A stretch of DNA of 64,000 nt, from positions 1 to 64,000 of the IMG/VR virus record IMGVR_UViG_3300032516_002690, one strand, 5' to 3'. The position numbers and the translations under genes are program-made. Each line of letters begins with the position of its first letter. The stretch's first letter is position 1. The stretch is from a virus. Positions 13,740 through 32,338 of the stretch are shown piece by piece. The notes under the pieces were generated by a model. That model had not been told where the DNA came from. It was given only the letters and a program-made list of their open reading frames with translations, and searched no databases.

Positions 13740-14509
13740 GACAGCGCCTCCAGCTTGGCGATACCTGCAGCAATTGTTGCAACTTTTTCAGACTGCGCAA
13801 CAGCGTCAGCCAGCAGTGAATATTCGAAAGCGCTGTCGTCAACAAAACCCGCAGTCTTTTGCAGAGTTTCGAAATTGTACGTCATAGCAGGCATGCGCAT
13901 GCTGCGACGCAATTCGGTCAACAGCGGCGCTACACGTTCACCATGCAGCGCAGCAGCGTTCTTCTCGAACGTAGAAAAAGGTACGTCTTGGTAAATACGT
14001 GCAAAGCGACGCTTGAGCGTCTGAAGCGTATCGCCGTAAACCATTTCACTCGCCATCTTTTCGTGACGGAGATGGTCGAGGGTTTTACGCACAGTACGTC
14101 GATCTACTTCGCGATTAGGCGTAGCTGTCGGACGTTCTTCAAACGCTACTTTGGTCATCTCAGGGGTTTCGTCTTCTTCGCGAAGCGAACGATACTCTGA
14201 GAAATAAGCCACGTCGTCAGCAGGCGTTGCCACGGCAGCTTCTTTGATATTGTCGGCAAATACCTGATCTGCATCAGCGACATCGAATTCAACAATACGA
14301 TCTGAAGCGGTCTTGTCTTTCGACTGGAATAGCTTATTGAACGTCGTATTGTTGGAGCTCTCGCAGAGCCTACGGACTTGCTCTTGCGACATATCCATAG
14401 ACGACGCCAGCTTGCGAATGCTGTTGTTCAGCGGTATTTTCTGTTGGACTAGATCGTCAGAAATGGCTTCAGCCATTTTCTTGTAATCGTTTTCAGTAAT
14501 ATGTGCCAT
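13736..14509 (-). CDS. Putative head protein
   Basis: Coupled ORF with about nine K-x-A motifs. Confidence 0.5.
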   Translation of the reverse strand: MAHITENDYKKMAEAISDDLVQQKIPLNNSIRKLASSMDMSQEQVRRLCESSNNTTFNKLFQSKDKTASDRIVEFDVADADQVFADNIKEAAVATPADDVAYFSEYRSLREEDETPEMTKVAFEERPTATPNREVDRRTVRKTLDHLRHEKMASEMVYGDTLQTLKRRFARIYQDVPFSTFEKNAAALHGERVAPLLTELRRSMRMPAMTYNFETLQKTAGFVDDSAFEYSLLADAVAQSEKVATIAAGIAKLEALS

Positions 14510-15228
14510 CAGTGCACCACCTTATCCGCGCCGAGGTCCTCGACAGTACGGTTACCGCGCGTTTCTTCAAACTTGATGTGAAGACTCTCGGCGTCCTCAT
14601 CACGTAGGTTGTCGTTACCGAGGATAGCTCGGGCGCACTCCACTGAGATTTTAGCGTACTTCGCGGCTTCGCGGGCCAGCTTGCCTGTAATCAGTTGACC
14701 GCGATGCTCCATCGAGCGGAAGTACGCATCGGTCATGATCGTCTTGATGACGTCCTGCGCAGGAACTTCACCCTTATTACGACAGAATTGCCACTGCAAG
14801 GCGCCGAGACCTTGGTGGTACGCAATTCGGTAGTACGCTTTGTACGGGTGATCTTCAGGAATTTCCTGCATGAACACGATGAGCTCAAGCTCAGTACGAA
14901 ATACCTGCGTGTCGAAGAAGATGTGCCTGTAGAAGCTCACTTCTTCGGGCGGCATCGATAGAGCTTCCGCTACTGAGAAGTCATTCTTAGAGGCTATTAA
15001 AAAAGACTCTAAAATACTGCGGATAGAATCCGTTCTGAATACCAGAATGGGATAATTAACTAGCGTATCTACAGTCTGGCTGGCGTGCCACGGCCGCAAT
15101 GGACAGATTTTATTTAAAGCTTCCGCGCCATGAAACGCTACGTACAGAGACCGCTCACTGTCGGTGTCTGGTACGCAGCGCTTCTGCGCAAAGGCTTCGT
15201 ATCGGTGACGCGGATTAGGCGATCGCAT
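14509..15228 (-). CDS. Hypothetical protein
   Basis: 239-aa ORF overlapping both neighbours; no motif recognised. Confidence 0.6.
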   Translation of the reverse strand: MRSPNPRHRYEAFAQKRCVPDTDSERSLYVAFHGAEALNKICPLRPWHASQTVDTLVNYPILVFRTDSIRSILESFLIASKNDFSVAEALSMPPEEVSFYRHIFFDTQVFRTELELIVFMQEIPEDHPYKAYYRIAYHQGLGALQWQFCRNKGEVPAQDVIKTIMTDAYFRSMEHRGQLITGKLAREAAKYAKISVECARAILGNDNLRDEDAESLHIKFEETRGNRTVEDLGADKVVH

Positions 15229-18200
15229 TCGGGTCTAGCATCGTTGAATTGTGCGTCATTGACAGCACAAGTTTACCTAGCCCTTGGAATGTATCACGCA
15301 TTTGCGTCTCTAACTCGATATATGTAGTCTCACCCAGTTGTTCTTTGATCTGGGATTCCTGCATATAGAGCGTGAGTAGCGTACGCCCCAAGTCATCGAT
15401 GCTGGATTCGAGGTTCGACGCGTACTGCGACGTCAAGCCCTTCAACGTACCGTTGCGTGCGAGCGATGCGATAGTACCTGCGTCGAATGCGCCGGTTTCG
15501 TGCATACCCGCCGCGCCTTCCAAAAAGGCAGGGTTAATCTGCGAAGCAATCTCCTCAGACGACGGTTGCTCCGTGCGCATGATTGGATATTGCGGCTCTT
15601 GTTGCGCATTGGGATCTGCGTTTGGGTCCATACCCATCGCAGGGTCCATACCTTCAGGCATACCTTGCATGCCAGGATCCCCGCCCATTTGCGAAGGGTC
15701 TTGCGGCATAGCAGGCGCAGGTGCTTGCGCAGGGTCTGCAGGCGCAGGTGCAGGCATACCGCCTTGCGCAGGATCAGCGGGCGCGGCAGGTTCGGCTGGC
15801 TGGCCCGTCTCAATTTCTTGAGCGCGTTGCTGAACCGTAGTCAGTACGTCGAGTTGGGCCTGCAAAGCAGTCATCTGTTCTTGCAGGCTCTGCATTGATT
15901 CCGAAAAAGCCTGGTCAACTGCCGAGGGCGGCGAGGGTGCAGGCGCCGGAGCTTGCTGCATAGCAGGGGGCATGGCAGGTGGCGCAGCTTGCGGGGCAGG
16001 CGCAGCGGGCGCAGGTTGCTGCATAGCTGGCGGACCACCCATCGGGGTTTGCGGCGCTGCTTCGCCTTGCGCAATTTTAATGCGGTATTTGAGACTTTGA
16101 TACGCAGAGGGCGTCACGATATACGAACGACACACGCCCGTATGCGACGCAATTTTCAACATTGCTTCGGCAGCAGACGCGTGTACTTTGTAGCGTGAAG
16201 CAATCTTAAAGATAGCTTCCTTTTTCGTATCCGTACGGTCGCCGTCTACGGAATACATGCTCTCGCCCGCATCGCGAACAACAGCCTCGTGGACGCCCAT
16301 CGAGCCCAACGCGTCGAGTACGATGTGGCTCAACGCGTCAGCTGTTCGCAGGAAGTCTTCAGCAGGCTTATCGTCCTTGAGACTCACCCACTTCCAGCTG
16401 GCCGGAATAACCACGAGATTTTGGTCTCGCAGTTTCATCGGGCGATTACCCGGAGAACGCGGGTCCATTACGAAGGCCTTGGCTCCCCAACCACCTTCAT
16501 TACTGATCTTGCCGCGCACCACACCGTCGGTACCTACGGAGAGCTCAGTAATTTCTACAGGCTTGGTGCCGTGATACTGCGCGCCGCGCTTAGAAATAAA
16601 CGCGCCAGTACCCTTAGAAGGCTTGGCAGTTCCCTCTGTGAGTACAGCTTTGTACACACCCGAGCCTTTAAGGAAGTTCTCTGATACCTGCTCGCCCATG
16701 AGCTGGTTTGTCATCACGTAATTGCCATCTTCGAGAATGGCAAGACGACTGTATTTATGCGAGCGTTCGATATCGCGTCCGTTACAGTCAAAACCGTACA
16801 AGCTCTCAGGCTCTTTGTTGTACGTGGTCTTGGGGACCTTGTTTTGTAGGCGCTTAACGCGACTGTCTTCCTTGGGAAAGGTAAATCGATCTTCGCTTAG
16901 AAGATCAAACGGCTCAGTAATGACCAACGCGCCTGTAGGTGCGCCCTTGGTTGTGTAGAGCCTGTAAGGTCCCGAAGACAGCGTGTCTTGGAAATGCTGG
17001 TACTTCTGTACTTGCACAGCCAAGTTGAGCGAAGGACGAGTGTCCTTAAAGTAGTAACCCCGCATCAGCACGCCGTTGAATGCTTCAGGCGCAGCTTCAC
17101 CGAAGAGCTCGGTGTATTCTTTCGCGCGCGTCGCTTTATCCGCGATATACAACGCACCGCCCGTATGCGAAACACCGGCAGTCTTGTGCGTCAGCGCTTT
17201 GATGAGCTGCTGCTCGCCGTAGAGTTCTGCAGCCTTTTTGAGTAGGCGGGGGTTTGCGTCCAATACTTTCGCAAATCCTTCTTTGACCTGATTAGGCGCC
17301 TTCTCTAGAAACTCAACGAGTTTAGGCGCATACGTATTCGACTTCTGCGCGTGCTTGAGCATCGCAGTAATGCCGTCCTCGTACGACGCATATCGCGACA
17401 TCGCAGACATAGGGTTGGCAAGGGCGGACAGTGCGGTGCCTACAAAACCAGGCTGTTGTTGGCCGGTGTAAGGGTCGACTTCCTTTTCCCGAGTATTCAT
17501 AATGCCGCCGAGGGCTGCGCCGGTATAGCGACCAGCCGCTTGGCCGAGTCCGGGAGATATGCCACCGCCAGATTGAATAGCTCCTTGGCGGCCAATTATT
17601 GCACCGATAGGACCGGCCAATGCTCCGCCCAACCCGCCGCGAGCCGCGACGCCTGGAGCATCGCGCCAGTCTTCCCAATCAGAGGTCATGAGACCGGTGC
17701 CTGCACCCGTCAGTCCGCCACGCACAGCGTTCGACACACCCTCATCGACCATTTGTCCGAGCGTGCGCACTGTCTCGGGGTTGATATGCGGCATGCTAAT
17801 CGATGCGGTAGTAGTCATGCCGGGTTGAGGAGCAGCAGGTGCCGCGCCTTGCTGTGGCGCCATACCTTGTTGCGGCATTTGTTGCTGTTGCGCGCCAGCA
17901 GGGGCCATACCCTGTTGAGCCGCAGCAGTTGCTGCGTTGGGGTCCTGCATCATTTCCCACGTCTTGGTGTGGGATTTGTACATCTTGGCTAGTGTATCTA
18001 CATCAAGAGCATTATTATCCAGCGCCTGGCCTGGAGACATTTGCTGGGTGCGCTGAAATTGCTCGACGAACGTTGCCCAGATCTCAGGATTAAACTCCGA
18101 AGGCTGCCCTGTAGCACCGGCTCCGGTACCTGGAAAAGGCCCGATAGCGATTTTCGTAAGTTTGCGACCTAGGGGTTCAGTCGAAGAAGCTTCGAGCCAA

Positions 18201-18877: not shown

Positions 18878-20140
18878 TTAAGCGTTCAGGTTCTGGAGAC
18901 GTGTTCGCAGTACAGAGAGCGATCCCATCTTGGATTCCGAGGACTCTTCCTTCTTCTGCATGAAAGCAGGAAGTGCGGGGCCCTTGTCGTCGCCCTTGTC
19001 ATCCTTGTCATCCTTCTTGGCATTTTCCGAAGTAGCGCACTCCGCTTCGGCAGTCTTACGGAAATGATCGCGGATTGACGCAGCCGCTTCCTTCTTCGAA
19101 CCCAGCGAAGAATAGAGCGTCTCAAGATATCCCGCACGCTCAGGTACATCGAGACCCATCATGGCGCGTACGTGCGCAACCTTCTGCGTCTCAGGCATAC
19201 GCTCGGGAAGATACGGCACAACCTGCTCAGCGGTTTGTGTGAATACTCGATCAAAAGCATTCTTGGTTTGCTCGGTGATCGAATTACTGCCGCTGGCCGT
19301 GGCGCCGGGCATAAGCGGATGCGGCATCTCGCGACCGATAACCGCGCCCGACGGAATGGTCATCTCGGTATTTCCGACGCCGCGTTCGCCCATGCTGGCA
19401 TAGCCTTCGGGACGGCGATTGAGTTCTTGTGCCGCTTCGGCATTGTCAGCAGCGGCTGAGGGCAGGTCGTTCGGATTGCCTCCGCCCGTGATCAGCGAGC
19501 CAGTATCCGCCGCTTGCTTTCGCGCAACGCGACGAACGATATCTGTAAACGAACCAGACTTTGCGGTCTGCTCAGTCACGGAATTCGAACCACCGTCGGT
19601 TGCGCCCGGTGCGACGGGAGAGCGTTGCTCGGTACCGACAGTGCCTTCGCCCTTGCCCTCCCAGTTACCGACGCCGCGCTCGCCAAGGTTGGCGTAATTC
19701 TCGGGACGGCGTTGCTGCTCCAAAGCAGCCTCACCGTTGTCAGCCGCTGCGCCGGGCAGGTCGTTCGGGTCTCCGCCACCTTGAATGAGCGAGCCCGTCT
19801 CGGCTGCAGACTTCTCCATAAGCGACCAAGCGTCACCTTGCGCGACTGCGACAGGGTTAGCGTCTTGCGCCGTCTTGGTAACGGAGGGGCTGTACTGATT
19901 GCCCGCTTGTTCGCACTGATACTCAGCTGCCTTGACGAGGTTTTCGCAGAGAAAACCCGCAACCTTCATGTCGAGCTGGCCGCCATTGAGGTAAGGGTCA
20001 GGCATCCCCGACTTATCAGCGATGTAATCCGCCGAAGCATCCGCCGCTTCTTTCGACGGGTAGACCACGACACCTTCGCGGATTAATTGCGCGTTCAGGC
20101 CCCGGACGAAGGCGCGCTTGAAAAGCGGTGAAATCGACAT
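18878..20140 (-). CDS. Internal head protein with two ~83-aa repeats
   Basis: Duplicated TGSLIxGGGxPNDLPxAAADN...GERGVGN...GSNS(V/I)TEQT; RBS AGGAG. Confidence 0.6.
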   Translation of the reverse strand: MSISPLFKRAFVRGLNAQLIREGVVVYPSKEAADASADYIADKSGMPDPYLNGGQLDMKVAGFLCENLVKAAEYQCEQAGNQYSPSVTKTAQDANPVAVAQGDAWSLMEKSAAETGSLIQGGGDPNDLPGAAADNGEAALEQQRRPENYANLGERGVGNWEGKGEGTVGTEQRSPVAPGATDGGSNSVTEQTAKSGSFTDIVRRVARKQAADTGSLITGGGNPNDLPSAAADNAEAAQELNRRPEGYASMGERGVGNTEMTIPSGAVIGREMPHPLMPGATASGSNSITEQTKNAFDRVFTQTAEQVVPYLPERMPETQKVAHVRAMMGLDVPERAGYLETLYSSLGSKKEAAASIRDHFRKTAEAECATSENAKKDDKDDKGDDKGPALPAFMQKKEESSESKMGSLSVLRTRLQNLNA

Positions 20141-20172
20141 ATGTACCCTGCTCCTATGGCGGTAATGCGTTT

Positions 20173-20201
20173 ATTGTAGTGCGGTTGATTCTGCGGCCCA
20201 A
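20173..20201 (-). promoter_or_regulatory. Sigma-70-like promoter TTGGGC-N17-TACAAT
   Basis: Intergenic, upstream of the internal-head/protease block. Confidence 0.5.
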
Positions 20202-20215
20202 GGCTTTAGTTCGGA

Positions 20216-22027
20216 TTAGTATTGCCCGTCTGGGCCTTCACCGAATTCCGAACTAAAGATGATGCCCGGTACGGGGCTGAGACTGTGTATGTCTGCGGTT
20301 TGCCCCTTCTGGGCCGCATCCAATATAGACTGTTTCAAGTAACGATGCCCCAAACGTACAAGCCAGTCGGGGTTTAGTAAAGGATTTCTCGTAGCGGGTT
20401 GAAGGATTGGCGAAACAATCGGGGCTTTGAAACCCGTTTGGATCTTTGAGTAGCCCGCTTCCTTTAGTTCGTCGATCATAGGCTGCGAGATACGGGTACC
20501 GATGAGATGGTGCAACGCACCCTCTGCGAGATACTTGCCTTCAGAGGAGTCGATAGCCGTGTGCACAGATTTACTGCCGGCTATGTTGCGCAGCTTGTTG
20601 TATTCGATTACGTCGCCGCGCACGAGACCGTGTTCTGCAGAGTCGTCATCATCTACGTCCTCTATACGTACGTGGTTGAGCGTAGATTTAGCGAGCACCT
20701 CAAAGTGTCGACGGTCTACAGGGACGTCGCTACCTTTGTATATGTCGCTCAATTTGTTCACGATGTAGTTACGGCCTTCGCCGAGTCCTTTGTGCTCTAC
20801 GACCTCGCCAGGTTTGGGCACGCCTTCAGATAACGCATCGCCCGCGTGTACTCGGTCTCCGACTTTTACGATGGGCTTAAGCCCTGACATTATGTAAACG
20901 CGATCGGTATTTACCGTGATGAAATAACCACCCTGAGGAGCCGTTACGATTTCTTTTACGGTGCCCGTGACGGGGGCGAGCGTCGCTTTGTTTTTGAAGG
21001 ATGCCGGCGACTCGATAATCATGCGGAAGCCTTCGAGGCCTCCGATGTCTAGCGGGTTCGTGCCTGACATACGTACACCGTGCTTAGCGTTGAGCGCGAG
21101 TTGGGTGAGAGGCTCACCTAATGCTTGGCTGGCACGAATACCTACGTTTTCACCGACAGGATTGAGCGTACCCGTAGTATTCAAACCCATACATTTCTGG
21201 CAAATACCGCGGTCGGCTTCGCAAGTCATGGGTGAACGGGTAATGATGTGCTCTATTTTTGCCTTCTGGAGCAACGACACGATCCGGGGAGCAACCAGTG
21301 TATTGCGCGGAAATTCGCCGGCTGCGACTGCCAGGAACCGATCTATAATGGCAGAGTTAGCGACTGCCATACGGAGACCATTCTTGGTCCCACAGTCAGG
21401 CATAGTAATAACTTGATCGCTCGTATTGTTGACGAGAATTTTCGAGAGATCGCCGGGTTCGCTAACTTCAATGGTCCCCTTTGCCGCGGCCATGCGCGCT
21501 TCTTTATTGTTCGCCCACCACTCTGAAGGACGCAAGCCTTCTGAGTAACTGTGCGTAGTCAGCCACGCCTGAACATTGTCGTGCTCATCGCTGCTTGCAG
21601 CAGGAGCACCCACCGCACGCATTAATTGCAGCGGGCTTCCGCGAGACCCAGAGCGCGCCATCTCCCCCATGGTTCCGGGGTGATTCATGGCGTATGCGAG
21701 CAACTTATCCTGTGTATCCCGGATAATCTCGTGCTTTTGCGCATCGGTCGTACTTGCTTTGATTTTCGCTAATGCGGGGCGCGTAATCGCGTTGCGTTCT
21801 TTGTACAGCGGTGCAATGTCGTCGAGGCCTACAGAGATACCCATGCTCGTAGAAAAATCATCGCCGAGTTTCTTCACTTTGGTGATGGTTTTTACGTACT
21901 GAACGGGATCGTCTTTAGCGAGCCGCAACATGTTCTGAAACAGATCTTTTTTCGTGTAAATGCCCGTAGGACGATATTCGCTGGGAATAGCGCCATCCAA
22001 CAAATAATGTCCTAGGGTTTTTGGCAT
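20216..22027 (-). CDS. rpoC: DNA-directed RNA polymerase, beta' C-terminal half
   Basis: MARSGSRGS, SYSEGL, bridge-helix-like EARMAAAKGTIEVSEPGDLSKIL, DCGT, RSPMTC..GICQKC, trigger loop GENVGIRASQALGEPLTQLALNAKH, RRHFEV. Confidence 0.92.
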   Translation of the reverse strand: MPKTLGHYLLDGAIPSEYRPTGIYTKKDLFQNMLRLAKDDPVQYVKTITKVKKLGDDFSTSMGISVGLDDIAPLYKERNAITRPALAKIKASTTDAQKHEIIRDTQDKLLAYAMNHPGTMGEMARSGSRGSPLQLMRAVGAPAASSDEHDNVQAWLTTHSYSEGLRPSEWWANNKEARMAAAKGTIEVSEPGDLSKILVNNTSDQVITMPDCGTKNGLRMAVANSAIIDRFLAVAAGEFPRNTLVAPRIVSLLQKAKIEHIITRSPMTCEADRGICQKCMGLNTTGTLNPVGENVGIRASQALGEPLTQLALNAKHGVRMSGTNPLDIGGLEGFRMIIESPASFKNKATLAPVTGTVKEIVTAPQGGYFITVNTDRVYIMSGLKPIVKVGDRVHAGDALSEGVPKPGEVVEHKGLGEGRNYIVNKLSDIYKGSDVPVDRRHFEVLAKSTLNHVRIEDVDDDDSAEHGLVRGDVIEYNKLRNIAGSKSVHTAIDSSEGKYLAEGALHHLIGTRISQPMIDELKEAGYSKIQTGFKAPIVSPILQPATRNPLLNPDWLVRLGHRYLKQSILDAAQKGQTADIHSLSPVPGIIFSSEFGEGPDGQY

Positions 22028-22288
22028 TTAAACGCCCCCGGCGCGCGGCAAGCCCATCTGGTAATTACGAGTTCCTGCGTCGCCTGATTCCAACGAATTC
22101 TGTCCGCTCCACGAGGGAGTCTTGTCGACGTTCTTCGCAATGGCAGGAGGATTCGCCGGACCGTTGGGGTTTTCGCTGTCGACGTTTGTTTGATCTTGCT
22201 CTGCAAATTCAGCGAACATGTCTGCAGACATGCCGAGTTTAATCAGTGCCTGCTTAGCTCCGTGCGTGTAGTAGCTGCTCGACATCAT
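22028..22288 (-). CDS. Small putative internal head protein
   Basis: YTHGAKQALIKLGM leader shared with two other ORFs. Confidence 0.55.
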   Translation of the reverse strand: MMSSSYYTHGAKQALIKLGMSADMFAEFAEQDQTNVDSENPNGPANPPAIAKNVDKTPSWSGQNSLESGDAGTRNYQMGLPRAGGV

Positions 22289-22671
22289 GACTTACCTGTC
22301 TCTGTAAAACTGCGATCTAAATTGAGGCGTGCTTCTATAAGACCGCCGATGTATTCGCGGGTTTTTTCAGGCATTTTCTGCTCTTTCAAAGTACGTACTA
22401 CAAAATCAATTGCAGTAGCACGCTTGTCTATGCTTGCTACGGCCGGAAGATTTAACTTCAAGGCTTTGCGGCCTTGCTCATGCGCAAAAGCAATGCCCTT
22501 CATAATAGCGTCGTCGAGCTGCAGCGCTTGCTGCTCTGCTACTGTCACACCCGTACGCTTTGCAAATTCTCGTGTGAGTTTGTGCGCAAGCATAATGGCT
22601 ATAGGCGTAATAACAATGATTAGCGTCTGCAGGACAAAGTCCAGGAGCATTTTTGTAGATGACGTATCCAT
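22285..22671 (-). CDS. Putative holin (LL-H-like)
   Basis: Single N-terminal TM helix, then DDAIMKGIAFAHEQ...KRATAIDFV...IEARL amphipathic pattern. Confidence 0.55.
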   Translation of the reverse strand: MDTSSTKMLLDFVLQTLIIVITPIAIMLAHKLTREFAKRTGVTVAEQQALQLDDAIMKGIAFAHEQGRKALKLNLPAVASIDKRATAIDFVVRTLKEQKMPEKTREYIGGLIEARLNLDRSFTETGKS

Positions 22672-22688
22672 CGAGTAAACCCCTCTAA

Positions 22689-22886
22689 TTAGGCTTGTAA
22701 CGCGTAATCATCCGTAACCAAACCACCCGCGGGCAATCCGTTCATAGCTTGAATCTTCAGATCTTTTTGCCGTTGCATTTCACGGCGACGCGCCATAAAT
22801 GCTGGCAAGTCTTCAGGATCTAATGCGTCCAAAAACCCGAGCTTATGTAGAGCCGCGCGCTTACCTGCGGTATAGTTAGACAGCAC
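22689..22886 (-). CDS. Small putative internal head protein
   Basis: YTAGKRAALHKLGF leader; overlaps the RNAP stop codon. Confidence 0.5.
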   Translation of the reverse strand: MLSNYTAGKRAALHKLGFLDALDPEDLPAFMARRREMQRQKDLKIQAMNGLPAGGLVTDDYALQA

Positions 22887-25800
22887 CGTGCGCCTCTTCG
22901 ATCTCCACCGGGGTGGTCATTTTAATATCACCGCGCTGATATGCCTGCATGGCCTCAGCTTGTGTTTTGAATTTGTGCACAGCGCCAGCATCGACTTTGG
23001 TTGCAAGATACGCCCCTAGGATAGCTTCATGCTTAGGAAATACCATGAGGTCAGCGGCATGCTTATCGCCGAATAGTAACTTGGACATTGTGAGGTTCTG
23101 GGCTTCTTGCACAGCCGCCATGGTTACAGGCACGTGTAGCTGCATCGCGTCGCCGTCGTAATCCAGGTTCTGTCCGGTTTCCATGAAAGGATTTACACGC
23201 AACGACTTGCCTTGAACGGGCACGGGATAGGCCGCGACAATGTTGTGTCTGTGCAGAGATGGCGCCCGGTTAACGAACATCGGCCTGTAAGTGATTTCGT
23301 GTTGCAGCACGGAATTAGCGGCGGGGTGTCGGTCCTCAACCATTTTCTTGGCGTCTAGAGGCCTGTAACCTTGTCCGATAAGTCCGCGCATTATGAACTT
23401 ATCGTACGTAGTCCAAAGCATATCTTCAGGTACGCCGATCTGGTCAATATCTAGCGTATTGTCTGGTGTGGCGGTGGCACGCCCCGTAAGGTCTTGTTGG
23501 CGTCGCAATATTTTCTTGTGCAGGAAACCAGTTTTAGGTGAACCCGATCCTGTGATCTGTTCAATGAATCCCTTTATCTCGCGATTAGCTCGACCGGGAG
23601 TCGTAGCTTTCTGCGTACCGAAAAGAGAGCCTACGGCGTCATGCAGATATTTGCGCGCGTCCGAGATTACACCCGGCATTTCAGTTTCTTTACTGTTCTG
23701 CAGCGCTGCGCTGGCAAGCCCGACGTCACGGTAAAGGTAATTGATGTCGGATATCTGCAAATCGTTACCACGGCTGGACTGTACGATGGGGCGCATCACC
23801 GGAGGTATAACGGGTATCTTTGATATAATGTACGCATCTCCCGCCTTGGAGAAGCCATTCTTTTTAAGCCCTTCGATATACTTGAGTTTCTTTACAACAC
23901 CATCTAAATCGGATCCGCGTTTAGTGCGCGTTTGTTCACGAAGCGCTACTGCAAGCTGGTCTAGATCGAGCTTATTTAATTGTTTACGAATACCCGTACC
24001 GCCGGAAGTCCCGATTTCGTCTTTGAGCTGCTTCTTAGACATATCCAACAGACGGCGTACCGCATCTTCGAATACCGGATTTACGATAGGCTCAGTCAAG
24101 TCGATATGCGACCACTTCTTGCCGCTCATACCGCCCGTCAAATTGGGGTCGAATAAACCCCCGGTCTCAGGAGCTAAATTCTTGGCATTTACCATGAATG
24201 ATTTAGATTTATCCAGACTAGGAGTACTGAGAGCTCCTGCGGATAAATTGGAGGTGGCGCGGTCTGTGAGCGGACCTAGACTTACGTGCGCTCCCTCTTT
24301 ATTAACATTGATGCCCGCGCCTTGAAGCATCGCCATGAATTTCTCTGTAACGAATGGCGTCTTAGGCGGTGGAGCCGGTAGGCCAAATTCATACGCACGC
24401 CAGAAATCATCGCTTTTCTCACTTTTTAAGGTCAATGCTTCTTTCAAGACATTGCGCGCATTGTGTGCGAGAAGTGCGTTGACTTCCATTCTGCCCAGGC
24501 CCTTGGCGCCTTCATCGCCGCCTTTAGTGGGCTGTAGGTTGACGTCGTAACCGGATACTCCGCGGGCTGAATAATTGGTCTCAGTTGACTTAAATAGCTT
24601 GTGAATAAACGAACGCCCCACAAAGACATTCGGAATATCTTTGCCAGATACAGGGTCGTGGACTGTTTCCTTGTCCTTAACGCCGTGCTCTTTCATGAGG
24701 CGCTTGGCAAATTCTACGTTGTTTTCGTTTTGAAACTGCGGGACGACAATAGGTTTGCCAATTTTCTCCGCGACTTTGCCAAGAGCCGCTTCAACAACTT
24801 GACCCGGATTAATGCGGCTGACGATACCTGCTGACGTGAACAGAACGTCGATTGGCTTCTTATTCTCGTCCTGAATCATGCGGTTGTCTGGAATGATCTC
24901 AGACACGACGCCCTTGCCACCAAAGCGATTCGATAACTTGTCGCCGATCTTCATCGGCTCTTGTGTCCGAATCGTTACCATGACTTGCCGTGTAGCGTTC
25001 GTAACGTCTTGAACCGTGGCAGGTACAAGCTTTTCCCATGTAATTGTGATATCTCGGTACGGCTTAAGCAGTGCCTTGTGAAATAAACCCAACATGGCTT
25101 GCTCGGGCGTAGGGGCGGCCTTGCGCAAGCCCAGAATAAGCGGATCGCCCTTGTTAAAGGTCGCGCCCTTTTTAGCAACACCGTTTTCGTCTAGTTTATT
25201 TAGCTGCTCTGCGCTAAATCGGACGCCGTAATACGCAACGTATTTGGGCTTATTTATGATAATATCCGGACCCTTTTGCAGGACCTCTTTATACATATGT
25301 TCGGAAGTCAGTTTGTGCGAAGCACCTTCACTGATAACCACAGCGTCGTTAGAGTTCTTGCCGTAATACGCCATGTACGCGATAGACAGGTTTTTGCCCA
25401 GCGCGGTCTCGCCACCCTTGGTAAAGTTGGACTCGCCGAGGAGCTGGTCCTGCTTTACCTTGTCGCCTACTTTGACGTTCAAAGTGTCGTGCAAGTAGGT
25501 CTTCGCTGTTAGCGGGAAATACGTATTGTACGGAACCTTGATTAGTGCAGGTTCAGCTGATGCCGTCTTTGCATGCGGACGAATGTAAATGTAATCGTCA
25601 TCTATCTTTTCGATAGTGCCGTCAACCGATGACGAGGGCGCAATTACACGCGCGATGGTGCGCTCCATACTCTCACCACCGGGGCCGCCACCTGCTTGTA
25701 CTAGCGGCGCTTCGCGGTGTACGAGGGGCAGCGCTTGCGCCTGGAACTTAGATCCCATGATCGCGCGATTACCCTGCATGCCGTCGAGGAAAGGTACGAG

Positions 25801-27282
25801 GGACGTAGCCGGGCTGAACATATGCGTCAGATTCGGCATGACGTAATCTACGTCTTTTTTAGCAATCGAACGCGTGTGATCGCCTTGTAATACATCCCAG
25901 TGCGTACGGTGATCTTGCCCTGGAAATGCGACGTTGCTCTTAGCAAGGTCCATAACCGACACGTCTTCTAGCCGCCCATTACGCATATTCTGCATGCGCG
26001 CGTAAAGATTGCCGTCAGAGTCTTTGTGTGCGGTCAATGCGCTGTGAATATCAATGCCCGTTTTAGGACCGTCTGGCGTGTGTACGGGGTCGATAACACC
26101 GAAATGGGAGTTATGGACTTTGCGCGACTCGAAGGGAATGGCTCGATCACTGCTTATGCCACCTTCGCCAAGTGATGTTATTTTACTGGCGTAATCAAGA
26201 ATTTCGACCGGATTGATTTGTGTTGGCTGAGATGACAGTGCAGCACCTGTCAAGAAACTGTTTATTGATTTTGTGAATACTGAGTGGGGTACCATGGACT
26301 TGATGTCCGCGCCTGATTGATTGAGACGCCCAGCGATTTTCTTTGCAACAGTACGACGTGCTTCTACGTCGAGACGCTCTTTGAAGAAGTCGTCTGTAGA
26401 GTGCAGCGTCTTGAATTCCAAGCTGTCACGGTCATCGGTTTTGGCAGTGCCCTTGTGTACATCGATCAGTTTCTTGCTGGCAACTAGCAACGCCTGCGCA
26501 TCAGCACGGCCTAAGGGCATACCTAGCGTACGGCTATTTACAGCAGAATCCATCGCAGTACTGTGGAAATAATCGCGAACGAACAGACGCTTACCTTCAA
26601 GCGAGGTGGGAGCGACCTGGTTTGGCCGCCTTATCTTGCTGACGATCTTGTTAAGAATCGCGTCTTCTTTTTTGGCGGATACGTTAGAATTCGCAGCGGT
26701 GAGCTCGTCACCCCAGTACTGTTTGATTTCAGTATCTGACGTACCTAGGATTTTCAGAATAGCGTACAGCGGAAGCTTCGAGGTCTTAGCAGTACCTCCG
26801 ACTTCCATATTTAACCGGCCCGTCGAAGGCTCCATTGCTAACCGGAAATTCGAGCCTTTGCTCAAATTGAACGCCGCTTCGAACTCACCGTTGTTACGCT
26901 CACGCGTATAAACGCCTGACTTCAGACGCAACTGGTTCGGGACGTTATATTCGTTGCCGCCCACGACGAACGTGTAACGACGGGTAAAGTACGGCAGGTG
27001 AACGAGGATGCGCTTCTGCTCGTCAGTGATCTGCCCCGTAGCGTTGTCCCGTAATTTAATCGTACCGCTAATAGCTTCGTTCAGCGTCCGCCCGCTCATG
27101 AGAGCGTCTTTCTGATCGCTGTTCGAGAAGTCCTTGCGGTTCACGTCTAGGCCGTGAAGTTCCAGCGTTGACTTCTTGCCGATGATGGGAAACAGCGCCT
27201 TGAGACCCTCCATAGTCTTCTGGCGGATCTGTTCGCGACGCACGTCTGCGTCCACAACTATTGGTTGTAAATTCAAGGGCAT
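22876..27282 (-). CDS. rpoB: DNA-directed RNA polymerase: beta subunit fused to beta' N-terminal half (contains catalytic DxDGD)
   Basis: Beta motifs HFGVIDPVHTPDGPKTG, NRAIMGSKFQAQA, GDKLSNRFGGKGVVS, GRMEV; then beta' motifs GGLFD..WSHIDL, IPVIPPVMRP, SDINYLY, NRAPSLHRHNI, NLDYDGDAM. Confidence 0.95.
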   Translation of the reverse strand: MPLNLQPIVVDADVRREQIRQKTMEGLKALFPIIGKKSTLELHGLDVNRKDFSNSDQKDALMSGRTLNEAISGTIKLRDNATGQITDEQKRILVHLPYFTRRYTFVVGGNEYNVPNQLRLKSGVYTRERNNGEFEAAFNLSKGSNFRLAMEPSTGRLNMEVGGTAKTSKLPLYAILKILGTSDTEIKQYWGDELTAANSNVSAKKEDAILNKIVSKIRRPNQVAPTSLEGKRLFVRDYFHSTAMDSAVNSRTLGMPLGRADAQALLVASKKLIDVHKGTAKTDDRDSLEFKTLHSTDDFFKERLDVEARRTVAKKIAGRLNQSGADIKSMVPHSVFTKSINSFLTGAALSSQPTQINPVEILDYASKITSLGEGGISSDRAIPFESRKVHNSHFGVIDPVHTPDGPKTGIDIHSALTAHKDSDGNLYARMQNMRNGRLEDVSVMDLAKSNVAFPGQDHRTHWDVLQGDHTRSIAKKDVDYVMPNLTHMFSPATSLVPFLDGMQGNRAIMGSKFQAQALPLVHREAPLVQAGGGPGGESMERTIARVIAPSSSVDGTIEKIDDDYIYIRPHAKTASAEPALIKVPYNTYFPLTAKTYLHDTLNVKVGDKVKQDQLLGESNFTKGGETALGKNLSIAYMAYYGKNSNDAVVISEGASHKLTSEHMYKEVLQKGPDIIINKPKYVAYYGVRFSAEQLNKLDENGVAKKGATFNKGDPLILGLRKAAPTPEQAMLGLFHKALLKPYRDITITWEKLVPATVQDVTNATRQVMVTIRTQEPMKIGDKLSNRFGGKGVVSEIIPDNRMIQDENKKPIDVLFTSAGIVSRINPGQVVEAALGKVAEKIGKPIVVPQFQNENNVEFAKRLMKEHGVKDKETVHDPVSGKDIPNVFVGRSFIHKLFKSTETNYSARGVSGYDVNLQPTKGGDEGAKGLGRMEVNALLAHNARNVLKEALTLKSEKSDDFWRAYEFGLPAPPPKTPFVTEKFMAMLQGAGINVNKEGAHVSLGPLTDRATSNLSAGALSTPSLDKSKSFMVNAKNLAPETGGLFDPNLTGGMSGKKWSHIDLTEPIVNPVFEDAVRRLLDMSKKQLKDEIGTSGGTGIRKQLNKLDLDQLAVALREQTRTKRGSDLDGVVKKLKYIEGLKKNGFSKAGDAYIISKIPVIPPVMRPIVQSSRGNDLQISDINYLYRDVGLASAALQNSKETEMPGVISDARKYLHDAVGSLFGTQKATTPGRANREIKGFIEQITGSGSPKTGFLHKKILRRQQDLTGRATATPDNTLDIDQIGVPEDMLWTTYDKFIMRGLIGQGYRPLDAKKMVEDRHPAANSVLQHEITYRPMFVNRAPSLHRHNIVAAYPVPVQGKSLRVNPFMETGQNLDYDGDAMQLHVPVTMAAVQEAQNLTMSKLLFGDKHAADLMVFPKHEAILGAYLATKVDAGAVHKFKTQAEAMQAYQRGDIKMTTPVEIEEAHGAV

Positions 27283-27290
27283 GCCCTGCT

Positions 27291-27320
27291 ATTATACGCG
27301 GTTTGTTCAAAAAACCGCAA
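27291..27320 (-). promoter_or_regulatory. Sigma-70-like promoter TTGCGG-N18-TATAAT, 8 nt from the RNAP ATG (possibly leaderless)
   Basis: Read in the divergent intergenic region; no clear SD between the -10 box and the ATG. Confidence 0.55.
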
Positions 27321-27328
27321 CCCTTGCT

Positions 27329-27342
27329 GGTAAAAGAATGTA
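27329..27342 (+). promoter_or_regulatory. Candidate phage promoter motif GGTAMAAG-N4-TA (copy 1)
   Basis: ggtaaaag-aatg-ta upstream of AGGAGG and ORF 27382. Confidence 0.45.
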
Positions 27343-27381
27343 GAGACGTATTAAGGCCACGTTTCTTTTCAGGAGGAAAAA

Positions 27382-28107
27382 TTGAGCGATACTAGCAGAT
27401 TCGAAGGGGATATCCGCGTGCAGGACTTGGCAGGTCCTACGTTCGCGGATATCGATCTGCAGACAGCCAGACTCATAGTCTGGGGGGTGCATTACTCAAA
27501 TATCAGTAAAGTGCTCGTATACTTGCGAGCCCGCCGATTGGAGGTCAGCAAAGAAGATTTGTACCGTTACGCGATGGCGTATCGTGCAGTCTTCCGTGTA
27601 GACGTGGCACGCGACGTACAATCCCGCTGTTGGCACTGCGGTGAGTTCCTACCTCCAATGGAGGAAGAACTCTGCGAGTGCTACAACCGGGCCGTGCCCA
27701 AGGTCTACATTGAGCCGACTCTCCTAGCGATCGAACAGGAAAAGCTATCTTTTCCAAATACATGGCATCTACGCCTACAAAGCACCTATATATGCAGTAA
27801 CGATAACTGTCGTCGGCTTAATGACGTTCCGTTAGGCGTTGTCGCATCTGATCTTAAAAAGGTGCAGTTGCGATACGAACAGCAGCTCACCCAATATGAA
27901 GCCGCAGTAGCTAGCGGTAATCTACAAGTTGTGGCTCCGCGCGAGCCAACCTGGCGCCCGAAGACTAAGTGCCATGCGTGCTATCAGCAAGAGCTGAGGA
28001 CCGGAAAGCGCTCAAGTGCTCCCCCGCCACGTATTAATACAAAAACGCGTGAGCAGAGTACGCTCGCGTCATTAATACTAGCGATTCCGCCCACCGCCGA
28101 GAGCTGA
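27382..28107 (+). CDS. Hypothetical Cys-rich (Zn-ribbon) protein
   Basis: AGGAGG RBS with TTG start; CWHC..CEC and C....C..CHAC motifs. Confidence 0.65.
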   Translation: MSDTSRFEGDIRVQDLAGPTFADIDLQTARLIVWGVHYSNISKVLVYLRARRLEVSKEDLYRYAMAYRAVFRVDVARDVQSRCWHCGEFLPPMEEELCECYNRAVPKVYIEPTLLAIEQEKLSFPNTWHLRLQSTYICSNDNCRRLNDVPLGVVASDLKKVQLRYEQQLTQYEAAVASGNLQVVAPREPTWRPKTKCHACYQQELRTGKRSSAPPPRINTKTREQSTLASLILAIPPTAES

Positions 28108-28129
28108 GTATGCACGTACGCCCCGTTGT

Positions 28130-28186
28130 TCCAGTACCGCCGATTAAGCGGTAATGGATAACCTGCCCATGCAGGTGGGCAGGTTA
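28130..28186. terminator. Two adjacent hairpins between convergent genes
   Basis: tcca-g-taccgc/gcggta-a-tgga (28130-28158) and perfect 11-bp taacctgccca/tgggcaggtta (28159-28186). Confidence 0.55.
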
Positions 28187-28681
28187 GTCGTCGTCAGTAT
28201 CATCTGGAAAGTCTTCGTCGGAGTCTGGGTCTTTATTGTCTGGATCGGGTGAAGGCGTGAGAAGTTCATTCGTCGTCAAAAACGGATGATCTTTTTTAGA
28301 TCCTGCCTTCGGCTGCATCCACTCAAGCCAAATTACGATAGTACCGTCTTTGAGAAACGTTTCTGTCTTCTTGACTACGACGACCTCTCCGGAGAGAGAT
28401 CTGTCCATAATGTCCTTGAGGCGGTCCGACTCGTCGATATCTTCAAATATCGCAGTGCCGTGATCCATCGCAGTCATTTCTTTACCGATAGTCAAGCGCG
28501 CTGACTGGTACTCAAATGAATACTCTGTAGCATTAGCGACTTTGCCCGCCGTACCCGGTGCGACCGATTTGACGAGGCTCTCGAATTCAGAACCTCTAAG
28601 CAAGTCCGGTACTGCTTTTTCGTTACTAGCAATATCGGGTAGCGTCTGCGCGTATTGCAGCGCTTTGATAAAATCATCCAT
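28184..28681 (-). CDS. Hypothetical protein downstream of portal
   Basis: Coupled to the portal stop codon; acidic tail. Confidence 0.6.
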   Translation of the reverse strand: MDDFIKALQYAQTLPDIASNEKAVPDLLRGSEFESLVKSVAPGTAGKVANATEYSFEYQSARLTIGKEMTAMDHGTAIFEDIDESDRLKDIMDRSLSGEVVVVKKTETFLKDGTIVIWLEWMQPKAGSKKDHPFLTTNELLTPSPDPDNKDPDSDEDFPDDTDDD

Positions 28682-30408
28682 TACGCGGCTCCGCCATTAA
28701 AGTCTGCTAGCGCTTGTTGTTTCTCTACAGCTTTCTGAGTAGACCATCGGTCTTTTACAACAGCGTACATAACAGGGTCTTCCTGAGATAGTTGTGCAAG
28801 CATAGATTTTTGGGTGCTGGGGTCTGCAGCACCCATTTGTTGTACCATTTGTTCCGCGGCAGAAATAATAGCTTGCGGATTATAAGAAAGTCCTGATCCG
28901 GACTGGGACTCATTTTGCGCTTGTTGCGATAGCGAGTTCTGTATTTTGTTCATCTTCTTGGAGAGCTCCATTTGCATGCGAGCTTCGTCAAGAGATTCTT
29001 GTAGGCGCTTTTCACGTTCTTCGTTGATGTCCGAATCATTGAGATCAAGCATGGTGGTATTCGAAATCATGCCGCCTGTTGCTTGCTGTAACCCTAACAG
29101 GAACTGCTTTTGCACTGCGTCATCAACGAGCTTGAAAGGTAAGTACTCTGCTTCTACAGGTTTCCAACTTAGAATTTTACTGGATTGTTTTATGACCCAT
29201 TCCAACTGTTCGTTGAGATGGGACGTGTACGTTTCGAGTTGGTTTTCCAGCATGCGCAAAGTTATGGACGAACCGGAGAACGATAGCCCGCCGTAAATGA
29301 ATTCCTTGGGAATACCCATTGCCGCGATAATTTCCTCCTCGGCTTCCTTTATTTCGCCGAGGGTTAGCAGGGATCGGCCCTGGCCGCCCATCATGGTTAC
29401 GCCCAGCGCTGCGGGCGCGAACATGATGTGCAGCGGATCGCGACGCCAGCGTTTGATGTTGGCCGTCATCTCTTGACGCCACTTCATCAAGTTGACCATC
29501 TGTGCTGGATCTGCTGCGCCGCTGATCGGTGCCGGATGCAAAACACGAAAAGGCAGTATGTGTTCGAACGCAATAGCCTCGTTCGCTTTACGCAAAATAG
29601 CCGTATAAAGAAATAGCTTGATTGTCGTTGTCAGTGGAGGGAAGCCCCACTGTGAAGAAATACCCGCAGGTGGGTGAATCTTCATGTGATAAACAGCACC
29701 GTCTGCGAACTCGAAGAGTTTATCGTCACGGATCGCCTTGAGAAACTCAATAGGCAGCGTGTTGATAATATGCGCATCGCCTTTTTCGACTTTGCTCTTT
29801 AGTTCCTGCGGGATGGTGTAGTAGTATACGGATTCGTTTGTGATGGGGTTGTGGTTGATATCCATCAACTTTGGGTCCCAACGAATTACGTTAATACGGT
29901 GCTCGTCACTTGCTTTCTCATCAAGAATTTCGCCTGTAGTCGTGGTATTGCACGCAGGGCAGCTGTATGAGAATGACAAAGTTTTCAGGTTGAACTTATA
30001 CGTCGTCTTTTTGATGCCTGTGCGGGCATTGCACTCTTTGCAAATCAAAAAGCGATTAAACGGATGGTATACGGATGTAAATGAGTTTCCGTACAGGTGT
30101 AAATCCAAGCCGGATGCAATGGCTACGCTCTTTATACGGATGGACTTATTTAATACGCGTTCCCAGTTTTTCGTTAGCGCTTCGTCACTCGACTGAATCA
30201 TCACTTTAGTGACAGGGTATTCGGCGAATTTCTTTAGAGCGGCAAAGATGTGTGCCGAGTTGTAATACAAATATTCGACCCAACGAAACAAGTCCTTCAG
30301 CTTACGTGGAGCGAAGCCTGTTACGAAATCGAACATCGGATTGGGATGACTGCCCCGACCCCGAGAACCCCCGGCGAGATCTAAAATTCCTGGATCACTT
30401 GTCGACAT
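28681..30408 (-). CDS. Portal protein (inferred) with Zn-ribbon insertion
   Basis: 575 aa; LHLYGNSF, IRWDPKLM, YHMK....WGFPP and IIAAMGIPKEFIYG follow portal-family patterns; CKEC..CPAC insertion. Confidence 0.7.
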   Translation of the reverse strand: MSTSDPGILDLAGGSRGRGSHPNPMFDFVTGFAPRKLKDLFRWVEYLYYNSAHIFAALKKFAEYPVTKVMIQSSDEALTKNWERVLNKSIRIKSVAIASGLDLHLYGNSFTSVYHPFNRFLICKECNARTGIKKTTYKFNLKTLSFSYSCPACNTTTTGEILDEKASDEHRINVIRWDPKLMDINHNPITNESVYYYTIPQELKSKVEKGDAHIINTLPIEFLKAIRDDKLFEFADGAVYHMKIHPPAGISSQWGFPPLTTTIKLFLYTAILRKANEAIAFEHILPFRVLHPAPISGAADPAQMVNLMKWRQEMTANIKRWRRDPLHIMFAPAALGVTMMGGQGRSLLTLGEIKEAEEEIIAAMGIPKEFIYGGLSFSGSSITLRMLENQLETYTSHLNEQLEWVIKQSSKILSWKPVEAEYLPFKLVDDAVQKQFLLGLQQATGGMISNTTMLDLNDSDINEEREKRLQESLDEARMQMELSKKMNKIQNSLSQQAQNESQSGSGLSYNPQAIISAAEQMVQQMGAADPSTQKSMLAQLSQEDPVMYAVVKDRWSTQKAVEKQQALADFNGGAA

Positions 30409-30433
30409 GCATTTTCCCCTGTAGGAGTACTCG

Positions 30434-32338
30434 GTGACCTACACACTAAAACTCGGCACAGTCTACGGTACTCCGGTATTTACTCTGCAATGCTGTGAAA
30501 GTGCAGTTAAAAACGTATATGGAGCATCATTTTCCGGAAAAGACAAACTCTGGCGATTCCCTGCATTCTTTCCAGTGCACCAGCTCGTTCTGTCGGACCT
30601 GCCGAAGATGGTGCCGGGACTGCAGTATGCTCCTGAAGTAGTTGAACATGTGCAAAAGCTTGCTGCGCCGGTTACCTTGCCTGATGATTTTAGTTTCTTA
30701 ACGCAACCATACCAACACCAGCGGGACGGTGTGTTGCATTTGCTACAGCGCCCACGCGCCGCGTTGTTCTATTCACCGGGACTCGGTAAGTGCAAAATAA
30801 CGGTGGATTTGCAGCGGATTACGCAAGACCGCATGCTGATACTATGCCCGCTTGTGATGCTTGGCACCTGGGCGGAAGAGTTCAAGAAACATGGCAACGT
30901 CGATGACGTTCTAATCATTGACGGTACCAAAAAACAAAAACAGAGCCGGCTTGAACAAGCACAGGCTAGGGCGCCTGTCGCCACAATCCTTACGTACAAC
31001 GTAGCAACGCTGTACACAGACGACATACTGAAAATAGCATACTCCGCGATTATTGCGGATGAATCACACATGCTTAAGACGCCTTATTCGAAACGCACGC
31101 AAGCCTCTACGTCTCTAGCGCTGCGCGCATCACGTCGAGTACTGTTGTCAGGCACGCCGTCGCTAGGATCTCCCTTCGATTTATACGCACAGTTACGTTT
31201 TCTTGGTACGTATTTCTGCCCTGAGAACTGGTGGCACTTCAGGAAACACTTTGGGGTATTCCACCCAAGCGAAGAGGGTGAAGCCGTACCTAAAATACTG
31301 CTAGGGTTTAAGAATATGGACACGATGAATACTCGTGTCGGGCTCGTTAGTCTCAAGAAGACAAAAGAAGAATGCCTAGACTTGCCTGATCAGCTTATCT
31401 TGGACGAATACTTTGTCGTTACAAATCCTACCAAGCGCGCGTACAACACGCTCATATTAGACCACTGTCTAGGAGCGGGTGTTTCGGTACAAGAGAAAAT
31501 ACTTGCGGGTGAGCTGACGGTAAAAGACGGCCCTGTAATTGATCCGCACGTCATAGCTACAGAGCTCATCGTTAAGCTGAATAAGCTAGACCAGCTAGCA
31601 AGTAGCTTTGTTTATCAAGCTACTAAAAACCCATTACTCTGTGTTGGCTGCCCTAATGCTGCGAAATGTAGCGCAGACGATATATTGCCTTACACGCCTA
31701 AATGCACCGTGAGCCAGCGTGAACCCGCGTCCGTCGTTATGACGTATGCCGATAATTCACGGCTTGAACGTTGTGTAGGATTACTCGAAGCTATTCTAGA
31801 AGATCCCGCTAACAAAGTGATTATTTGGGCTAAATTCATGCCTGAATTGGATGCGCTCGAAGCTGCGATAAAGGAACTAGGAAGTCAGTACGTCCGCGTG
31901 CAGGGCGGGTTTACACGCGAGCAACTCACGCACGCGATGACTACCTTTAACAACGCTCCTGATTGTAGGGTGTATCTCGGTCAAGTAGCTACAGGGGTTG
32001 GTGTAACGCTCAATGCTGCAAACTACACAATTTATTACAATCTGCCTTGGAGTTTAGATCAGTACTTACAATCGCTAGATCGTAATTATCGTATTGGTCA
32101 AACCAAAAAGGTTACGGTGTATCGCCTACTGGGCCGAAACACATTAGACGTATCTAAAGCGGCAGCGCTAGATCAAAAGATAGACTTCAGTCAACTCGTA
32201 ACCTCGAAGTCTGTATGCGCGACGTGCCCCGATTATCATATACGTTGCTCGAAATATAAAATTAAACTGTACGACGCGGAGTGTAAATACGACCGTGAGA
32301 TGATGCGGCAAAAAGCTACTGTGGAGTTAATACCATGA
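30434..32338 (+). CDS. SNF2-family helicase/ATPase
   Basis: PYQHQ, PGLGKC, IADESH, LSGTP, GVGVTLNAA, QSLDRNYRIGQ. Confidence 0.92.
   Translation: MTYTLKLGTVYGTPVFTLQCCESAVKNVYGASFSGKDKLWRFPAFFPVHQLVLSDLPKMVPGLQYAPEVVEHVQKLAAPVTLPDDFSFLTQPYQHQRDGVLHLLQRPRAALFYSPGLGKCKITVDLQRITQDRMLILCPLVMLGTWAEEFKKHGNVDDVLIIDGTKKQKQSRLEQAQARAPVATILTYNVATLYTDDILKIAYSAIIADESHMLKTPYSKRTQASTSLALRASRRVLLSGTPSLGSPFDLYAQLRFLGTYFCPENWWHFRKHFGVFHPSEEGEAVPKILLGFKNMDTMNTRVGLVSLKKTKEECLDLPDQLILDEYFVVTNPTKRAYNTLILDHCLGAGVSVQEKILAGELTVKDGPVIDPHVIATELIVKLNKLDQLASSFVYQATKNPLLCVGCPNAAKCSADDILPYTPKCTVSQREPASVVMTYADNSRLERCVGLLEAILEDPANKVIIWAKFMPELDALEAAIKELGSQYVRVQGGFTREQLTHAMTTFNNAPDCRVYLGQVATGVGVTLNAANYTIYYNLPWSLDQYLQSLDRNYRIGQTKKVTVYRLLGRNTLDVSKAAALDQKIDFSQLVTSKSVCATCPDYHIRCSKYKIKLYDAECKYDREMMRQKATVELIP

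Follow-up and report, generated by a model that had tools for sequence, protein, structure and literature searches.

A cellular-like phage RNA polymerase in which beta is fused to the N-terminal half of beta'

To our knowledge, all cellular multisubunit RNA polymerases assemble on an alpha-type platform, and the only well-studied exceptions are the diverged, many-piece enzymes of the phages phiKZ and AR9. Alpha-less multisubunit phage polymerases have precedent, and in the phiKZ/AR9 enzymes beta' is split in the linker that follows the catalytic barrel (PMC7598289). A cellular-like beta and beta' are also encoded by the mReC phages, a group of uncultured tailed phages (Weinheimer and Aylward 2020; PMC7481178). 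Here, we analyse the first 64 kb (the window) of the 104,209-bp IMG/VR virus contig IMGVR_UViG_3300032516_002690, which has a CheckV completeness of ~58% and derives from an uncultured phage with a genome of ~180 kb. The window encodes a polymerase of two large chains. Chain 1 (22876-27282 (-), 1468 residues) is a beta::beta'N fusion in which residues 1 to ~995 correspond to beta and residues ~999-1468 to the N-terminal catalytic half of beta'. Chain 2 (20216-22027 (-), 603 residues) is the beta'C subunit, comprising the bridge helix, the second zinc site, the trigger loop and the C-terminal module.

An initial inspection of the sequence (the original prediction) had claimed that the 1468-residue chain runs from beta motifs directly into beta' N-terminal motifs and the catalytic NLDYDGD, and Pfam, PDB matches and an alignment with E. 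coli all agreed with this description. Pfam located Rpb2_3 (residues 355-418), Rpb2_6 (613-921; expectation value (E) 7e-41) and Rpb2_7 (929-956) in the beta part, followed by Rpb1_1 (1122-1245) and Rpb1_2 (1321-1399) in the beta' part. By sequence match to PDB entries, residues 23-996 corresponded to residues 30-1059 of a cyanobacterial beta subunit of 1104 residues (E 6e-75), and residues 1092-1461 to residues 169-539 of B. subtilis beta'. The alignment with E. coli placed the fusion junction at 24268-24321 (-), where about five residues separate the beta C-terminus GAGINVN (988-994) from the first beta' strand HVSLGPL (999-1005); nothing in the chain corresponds to the N-terminal ~18 residues of E. 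coli beta'. The active-site motif of the beta double-psi barrel, GDKLSNRFGGKGV (residues 780-792; 24907-24945 (-)), lies inside the Rpb2_6 match, and the Mg-binding catalytic motif NLDYDGD of the beta' double-psi barrel was found at residues 1372-1378 (23149-23169 (-)). A further early observation, that no zinc-finger cysteine occurs between GGLFD (1041-1045) and SHIDL (1058-1062), proved to reflect a deletion at 24097-24162 (-). The spacing of the two motifs is 12 residues in the fusion chain versus ~45 in E. coli, and the zinc-finger segment between GLF and HIEL appears as a clean 32-residue gap in every aligned family member. Since the chain is devoid of cysteine throughout its 1468 residues, the beta' zinc finger is gone.

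AlphaFold2 modelled residues 560-1468, which include the beta barrel, the junction and the beta' barrel, as one confident body (predicted local distance difference test (pLDDT) 88.8; predicted template modelling score (pTM) 0.81). Foldseek matched the halves of this model to solved beta chains and to beta' or cyanobacterial gamma chains, and the beta'N part reached a template modelling (TM) score of 0.63 with gamma chains of 615-617 residues. Chain 1 is a complete, compact beta that is linked covalently to the N-terminal half of beta' with its clamp helices and Mg-binding barrel. Besides the clamp helices, the chain contains the flap-tip helix (TPEQAMLGLFHKA; 25072-25110 (-)), which in bacterial enzymes is the docking site for sigma region 4. 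The counterpart of rifampicin cluster I (26158-26241 (-)) is strongly diverged from E. coli (Q513>S, F514>Q, D516>T, H526>Y, R529>K and S531>T in E. coli numbering), and a pocket of this composition would predict a drug-insensitive enzyme.

As originally noted, the bridge helix (residues 163-199) and the trigger loop (304-317) are located in the 603-residue protein, whose gene lies three small open reading frames (ORFs) downstream of the fusion gene. This protein carries an Rpb1_5 domain (164-461) and, in the PDB match, continues at beta' residues 638-1089. It contains exactly four cysteines (212, 269, 276 and 279), which make up the second zinc site of beta' and show almost no variation across the family. 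The AlphaFold2 model of chain 2 had a pLDDT of 78.4, with a disordered trigger-loop tip and C-terminal tail. Chain 2 thus provides the bridge helix and trigger loop along with the second zinc site and the C-terminal module, and all catalytic motifs are intact. Because the matches cover nearly the whole length of both chains, the two together represent a compact but complete beta and beta' without any extra domain. The trigger loop (21077-21118 of the window; GEPLTQLALNAKH) has Leu-Asn in place of the bacterial Met-Arg, like archaeal and Pol II enzymes, and this is a change derived within the two-chain clade, given that the basal single-chain relatives introduced below retain the bacterial MRTFH.

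The division between the chains could be located closely, with chain 1 ending at about E. coli beta' residue 568 and chain 2 beginning at about residue 569. Residue 49 of the window beta'C aligns with residue 34 of cyanobacterial RpoC2 in the PDB match, and the PDB coordinates place the window cut ~15-20 residues upstream of the cyanobacterial rpoC1/rpoC2 cut. No group I intron or other known RNA was found at the split site, within positions 19500-31000 of the window.

The window enzyme is one branch of a very large phage family, which we sampled at two clustering levels, taking the best 120 clusters at 90% identity and, at 50% identity, the best 150. All members of the former set possess beta and beta' domains on chains of 1450-2100 residues, encoded on contigs of at most 207 kb. 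The latter came from a filter-free search of 1.84 billion representatives, and each of these best 150 matches spans the junction in one stretch. When 268 family proteins were searched with the three parts of the enzyme, 211 were split, ending where the window chain ends, and 57 were fused. In the fused forms, which are more distant relatives of ~2000 residues, the beta'C part starts within a few residues of the split point, and Pfam confirmed Rpb1 domains 3, 4 and 5 in chains of ~2030-2060 residues. Fused forms are present on IMG/VR viral contigs (one of them, P0174, leads to three such contigs); none was found among GenBank phages, and for the fused 2032-residue protein P0170 no close IMG/VR relative was found. 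The cultured members, Salmonella phage Arash and Vibrio phages D69, D148 and D181, all have the split form, and genomes in the two-chain group measure ~180-190 kb. These data also bear on the trivial explanation that the unusual layout stems from a mis-join, a frameshift or a decaying pseudogene, the first of which had been named from the outset as a finding that would overturn the prediction. Both the junction and the stop point recur in four cultured phages and in over 200 independent clusters, catalytic motifs are invariant, and peptides cover 100% of the Arash orthologue Gp206. We therefore rejected this explanation, whose probability we regard as negligible.

The comparison with bacterial RpoB and RpoC that the original prediction had called for was carried out with FastTree (150 sequences, 1447 profile columns) and IQ-TREE (42 sequences, 1143 columns, LG+G4), both trees being rooted on four bacteria (E. 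coli, Acinetobacter, S. aureus and E. faecalis). The outgroup sequences were taken from E. coli K-12 and from three GenBank records mislabelled 'phage'. Records of this kind (OR844998, OR846602, CAKLQH020000005 and AGRM01000005) are bacterial contigs, as evident from their ordinary rpoB-rpoC operons with ribosomal protein genes. In both trees the family was monophyletic and the fused forms made up its basal part. The sampled split forms (20 in the IQ-TREE set), including those of the window, Arash and D69, all fell into one clade (support 0.989; SH-like approximate likelihood ratio test (SH-aLRT) 100). With the fused forms basal on outgroup-rooted trees, the window layout appears to derive from an ancestral full fusion that was split later. 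The simplest reading of these sequences would be one such split followed by some re-fusions. The original description as a re-partition of bacterial beta and beta' was hence right about the layout, which is real, and has to be amended in that the window enzyme is one branch of a large family in which the fusion probably came first and the beta' split later.

We then asked which further subunits the phage could provide. The original prediction had reported no alpha or omega subunit in the window, and this extends to the whole 104-kb contig and the complete Arash and D69 genomes, where six-frame searches returned no match at E<=1 for alpha (PF01000, PF01193, PF03118) or omega (PF01192), while the controls matched. 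Two sigma-70-type factors, on the other hand, are conserved. One of them, encoded at 35730-36413 (-), is a protein of 227 residues that comprises regions 2 and 4; it is orthologous to Arash gp196 and likely to be the specificity subunit of this polymerase. The second lies outside the window (contig positions 72368-72784 (-)) and is the orthologue of Arash gp10 (38% identity, E 5e-28). Each genome carries one polymerase set; a search for a T7-type single-subunit polymerase as a second enzyme gave no match, but its control was unable to match either. What had been proposed as a minimal two-chain polymerase with both barrels in one polypeptide therefore stands as far as the conserved two-chain catalytic core is concerned, but the enzyme is not bare, as it is accompanied by two sigma-70-family factors.

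Independence from alpha appears plausible in view of the covalent link between beta and beta' and by analogy with the phiKZ/AR9 enzymes. Alternatively, the two phage chains could form a hybrid that must assemble on the host alpha dimer, perhaps with omega, which would make it a variant of the host enzyme specific to the phage. Such a hybrid would be in line with the close match of both chains to their bacterial counterparts (E values of 1e-75 and 1e-45 against solved chains) and with the lack of an extra domain that could stand in for alpha, given that the matches span nearly the whole length. Nevertheless, we regard it as unlikely, although it is the most serious of the alternatives: the hosts of the family are distant (Salmonella, Vibrio and many unknown ones) and differ in their alpha subunits, a virion-packaged enzyme would require alpha in the virion as well, and the phiKZ/AR9 enzymes function without alpha (PMC7598289).

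The genomic surroundings pointed to a connection with the virion. The portal protein gene (28681-30408 (-); 33% identity to the Arash gp204 portal) heads a same-strand block that includes the polymerase genes. The block also contains the gene of a 621-residue protein (10808-12673 (-)) whose residues ~78-230 match the head maturation protease family phrog_18299 (E 5e-9). A SNF2-family helicase is encoded divergently from the portal gene, at 30434-32338 (+). The order divergent SNF2 helicase, portal, small gene, fusion gene, variable small genes and beta'C was kept from 98% down to 32% identity, and in all relatives examined the helicase stands beside the polymerase block and the polymerase genes lie in the portal/head-protease strand block. 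In the virion proteome of Arash, the chain 1 orthologue Gp206 had the top spectral count of all virion proteins (3516 spectra, 100% coverage), accompanied by Gp216 with 1210 spectra and the sigma factor Gp10 with 467 spectra (PMC10585845). The Arash helicase Gp217, which is encoded directly after beta'C, was likewise abundant in virions (PMC10585845), and the SNF2 helicase and Gp217 may be polymerase-associated remodelling factors. On the grounds of the Arash virion proteome and the position in the portal/head block, the best-supported role is that of a packaged, sigma-dependent polymerase that starts phage transcription; by analogy, packaging would also be the likeliest fate of the polymerase in the window phage. 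The Arash authors themselves noted that abundant enzymes were possibly carried over from the lysate (PMC10585845), which is compatible with a different role, namely a non-virion polymerase made during infection for middle and late genes while the host enzyme reads the early ones. A single polymerase set per genome would fit this role too, as opposed to the separate virion and non-virion sets of phiKZ-type phages. We consider it rather improbable, since Gp206 tops the virion counts with Gp216 and sigma found alongside, the genes reside in the portal/head-protease strand block in all relatives, and the polymerase genes adjoin small proteins that are virion components in Arash (gp210 and gp213).

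Taken as a whole, the data make it reasonably probable that the window encodes an alpha-free two-chain core which is used with phage sigmas, made late, packaged into the virion and injected for early transcription, the split being secondary. According to this model, the covalent beta-beta' link would do the assembly job of the bacterial alpha dimer, so that chain 1 and chain 2 would make up the core, and promoter choice would be set by phage sigmas docked on the flap tip and the clamp helices, both of which are retained. The enzyme would be produced late from the portal/head gene block and packaged with one sigma of the Arash gp10 type; once injected, it could read early phage genes without the host polymerase, and the other sigma (35730-36413) might drive a later gene class. 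The break after the beta' barrel would have arisen secondarily from a full fusion, in the same surface linker where cyanobacteria and phiKZ-type phages split beta', and small virion-type genes would have been inserted there in this lineage. Several points weigh against this model. Natural beta-beta' fusions do not dispense with alpha in bacteria such as Helicobacter, which speaks for the hybrid enzyme. Furthermore, the phage enzyme retains full-length, bacterial-like beta and beta' C-terminal regions, so that host alpha and omega might still be used. The contig is only ~58% complete; the search for alpha did, however, include two complete relatives, Arash and D69, and was negative there as well. 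Packaging rests on a single proteome, that of the 35%-identical relative Arash, to which the carry-over caveat applies. As to the history of the split, three fused forms nest within the split clade, which requires a minimum of four state changes, and the family tree is rooted on no more than four outgroup sequences, drawn from two phyla. More tentatively still, and at somewhat less than even confidence, we propose that the family as a whole represents a bacterial-type RNA polymerase that is self-sufficient without alpha or omega, can be programmed by sigma factors and relies on the covalent link in place of the alpha platform, with single-gene versions of ~2000 residues at its base, the window enzyme as a two-piece derivative, and packaging in the virion for host-independent transcription.

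The fusion gene, three small ORFs and the beta'C gene overlap or abut and constitute one tight unit of five genes. The 65-residue ORF (22689-22886 (-)) overlaps the end of the fusion gene, bears a YTAGKRAALHKLGF leader near its N-terminus and has homologues confined to close relatives; it is followed by a 128-residue ORF (22285-22671 (-)) with a hydrophobic N-terminal helix and by an 86-residue ORF (22028-22288 (-)) with a YTHGAKQALIKLGM leader, which abuts the start of the beta'C gene. Neither these three ORFs nor most of the neighbouring genes had a Pfam or PHROGs family match. The motif Y-x-x-G-x(3)-A-L-x-K-[LI]-G-[MF] was observed at the N-termini of three otherwise unrelated proteins (22028-22288, 22689-22886 and 5061-6095), two of which are ORFs at the polymerase split. 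These were its only matches within the 104-kb contig, and the shared N-terminal motif may be a packaging or processing signal.

Insertions into the polymerase genes were observed in several relatives. Many family members of 1800-2900 residues carry inteins, for instance P0201 (Intein_splicing and LAGLIDADG), which has an additional N-terminal 2H phosphoesterase domain; P0013 contains an unexplained insert of ~340 residues in beta. Vibrio phage D181 harbours two group I introns (positions 1218-1425 and 5015-5295 of locus L027; Rfam RF00028, 100-102 bits), each adjoining a homing-endonuclease gene, one in the portal gene and one in the beta part of the fusion gene. Both genes are intact in its sister D69. 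On another IMG/VR contig (L023, 142.6 kb), a fused-type gene is broken at 14044-15342 by an insert of ~1.3 kb, with the downstream part in another frame; an intein containing an error, an intron and an independent split are all conceivable.

Several elements of this system have precedent, namely the beta-beta' fusion, the beta' split and the presence of polymerases in the virions of several phages. The combination, a near-cellular enzyme that lacks the zinc finger, alpha and omega, keeps its sigmas and exists naturally in one- and two-chain versions, was not found described. A description of the phage beta::beta' fusion was not found in the literature searched, of which coverage was incomplete; only the annotation 'subunit beta' appears. 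The family is common in metagenomes, with hundreds of clusters at 50% identity, and it aligns end to end with bacterial beta and beta', yet has no alpha, omega or zinc-finger gene. It thereby makes testable whether a covalent beta-beta' link can substitute for alpha, what the beta' zinc finger is needed for, and why the same beta' linker has been cut repeatedly, in cyanobacteria, plastids, phiKZ-type phages and this family. A sigma-programmable polymerase encoded by one or two genes would also serve as a laboratory tool.

The nearest described systems are the cultured relatives. Arash Gp206 and Gp216 (1525 and 606 residues) and a pair of 1527 and 609 residues from Vibrio phages have the two-chain layout of the window. 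Arash, D69, D148 and D181 share with it the junction, the stop point, the missing zinc finger, the portal-adjacent position, the SNF2 neighbour and the two sigmas; within the clade, however, they are only remotely related to the window proteins (32-35% identity over 98-99% of the length). Between the two halves, Arash has nine genes, D69 two and the window three unrelated ones, and one of the two D181 introns described above, with its homing endonuclease, sits in the fusion gene. In the Arash paper, Gp206 is labelled 'subunit beta' and the fusion is unmentioned (PMC10585845). The uncultured single-chain forms (P0170, 2032 residues, and P0174, from an IMG/VR contig) have ~40% identity to the window enzyme and the same junction and zinc-finger deletion, but comprise all of beta' in one polypeptide, running on where the window gene stops. 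Among cellular systems, the rpoB-rpoC fusions of Helicobacter and Wolbachia also join the C-terminus of beta to the N-terminus of beta' in one reading frame; these belong to cells and have a full-length beta', the zinc finger and both alpha and omega. Cyanobacteria and plastids cut rpoC1-rpoC2 in the same linker after the catalytic barrel as the window, but cyanobacteria, unlike the window, have a separate beta as well as alpha, omega and the zinc finger.

Other phage polymerases are further removed. In phiKZ/AR9 enzymes, which have diverged much further, beta is also split, a sigma homologue is missing and a phage-specific fifth subunit is present, whereas in the window beta is intact and fused, and sigmas are encoded; matches of the window chains to phiKZ/AR9-type subunit families in PHROG were weak (E 1e-5 to 1e-19). 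Single-chain two-barrel polymerases (crAss gp66, YonO, P23-45 gp64/gp96) are highly diverged and without recognisable beta/beta' Pfam domains, in contrast to the strong Pfam and PDB matches of the window enzyme to cellular beta and beta', which therefore does not belong to that class. The mReC phages encode a beta of ~1400 residues and a beta' of ~1300-1390 residues as separate full-length genes, several genes apart (PMC7481178). The screen by which they were found required NADxDGD in a beta' of at least 800 residues (PMC7481178), and the window enzyme would fail it. Identity with the mReC lineage was rejected on architecture, that is, separate full-length genes versus fused and split ones; contig numbers of the related loci were absent among the mReC polymerase contigs, one number being seen only as a reference terminase match. 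Measured against the bacterial core of beta, beta', alpha2 and omega, the window departs in its lack of separate full-length beta and beta' genes, of its own alpha and omega and of the beta' Cys4 zinc finger, while it keeps both barrels, the bridge helix, the trigger loop and sigma.

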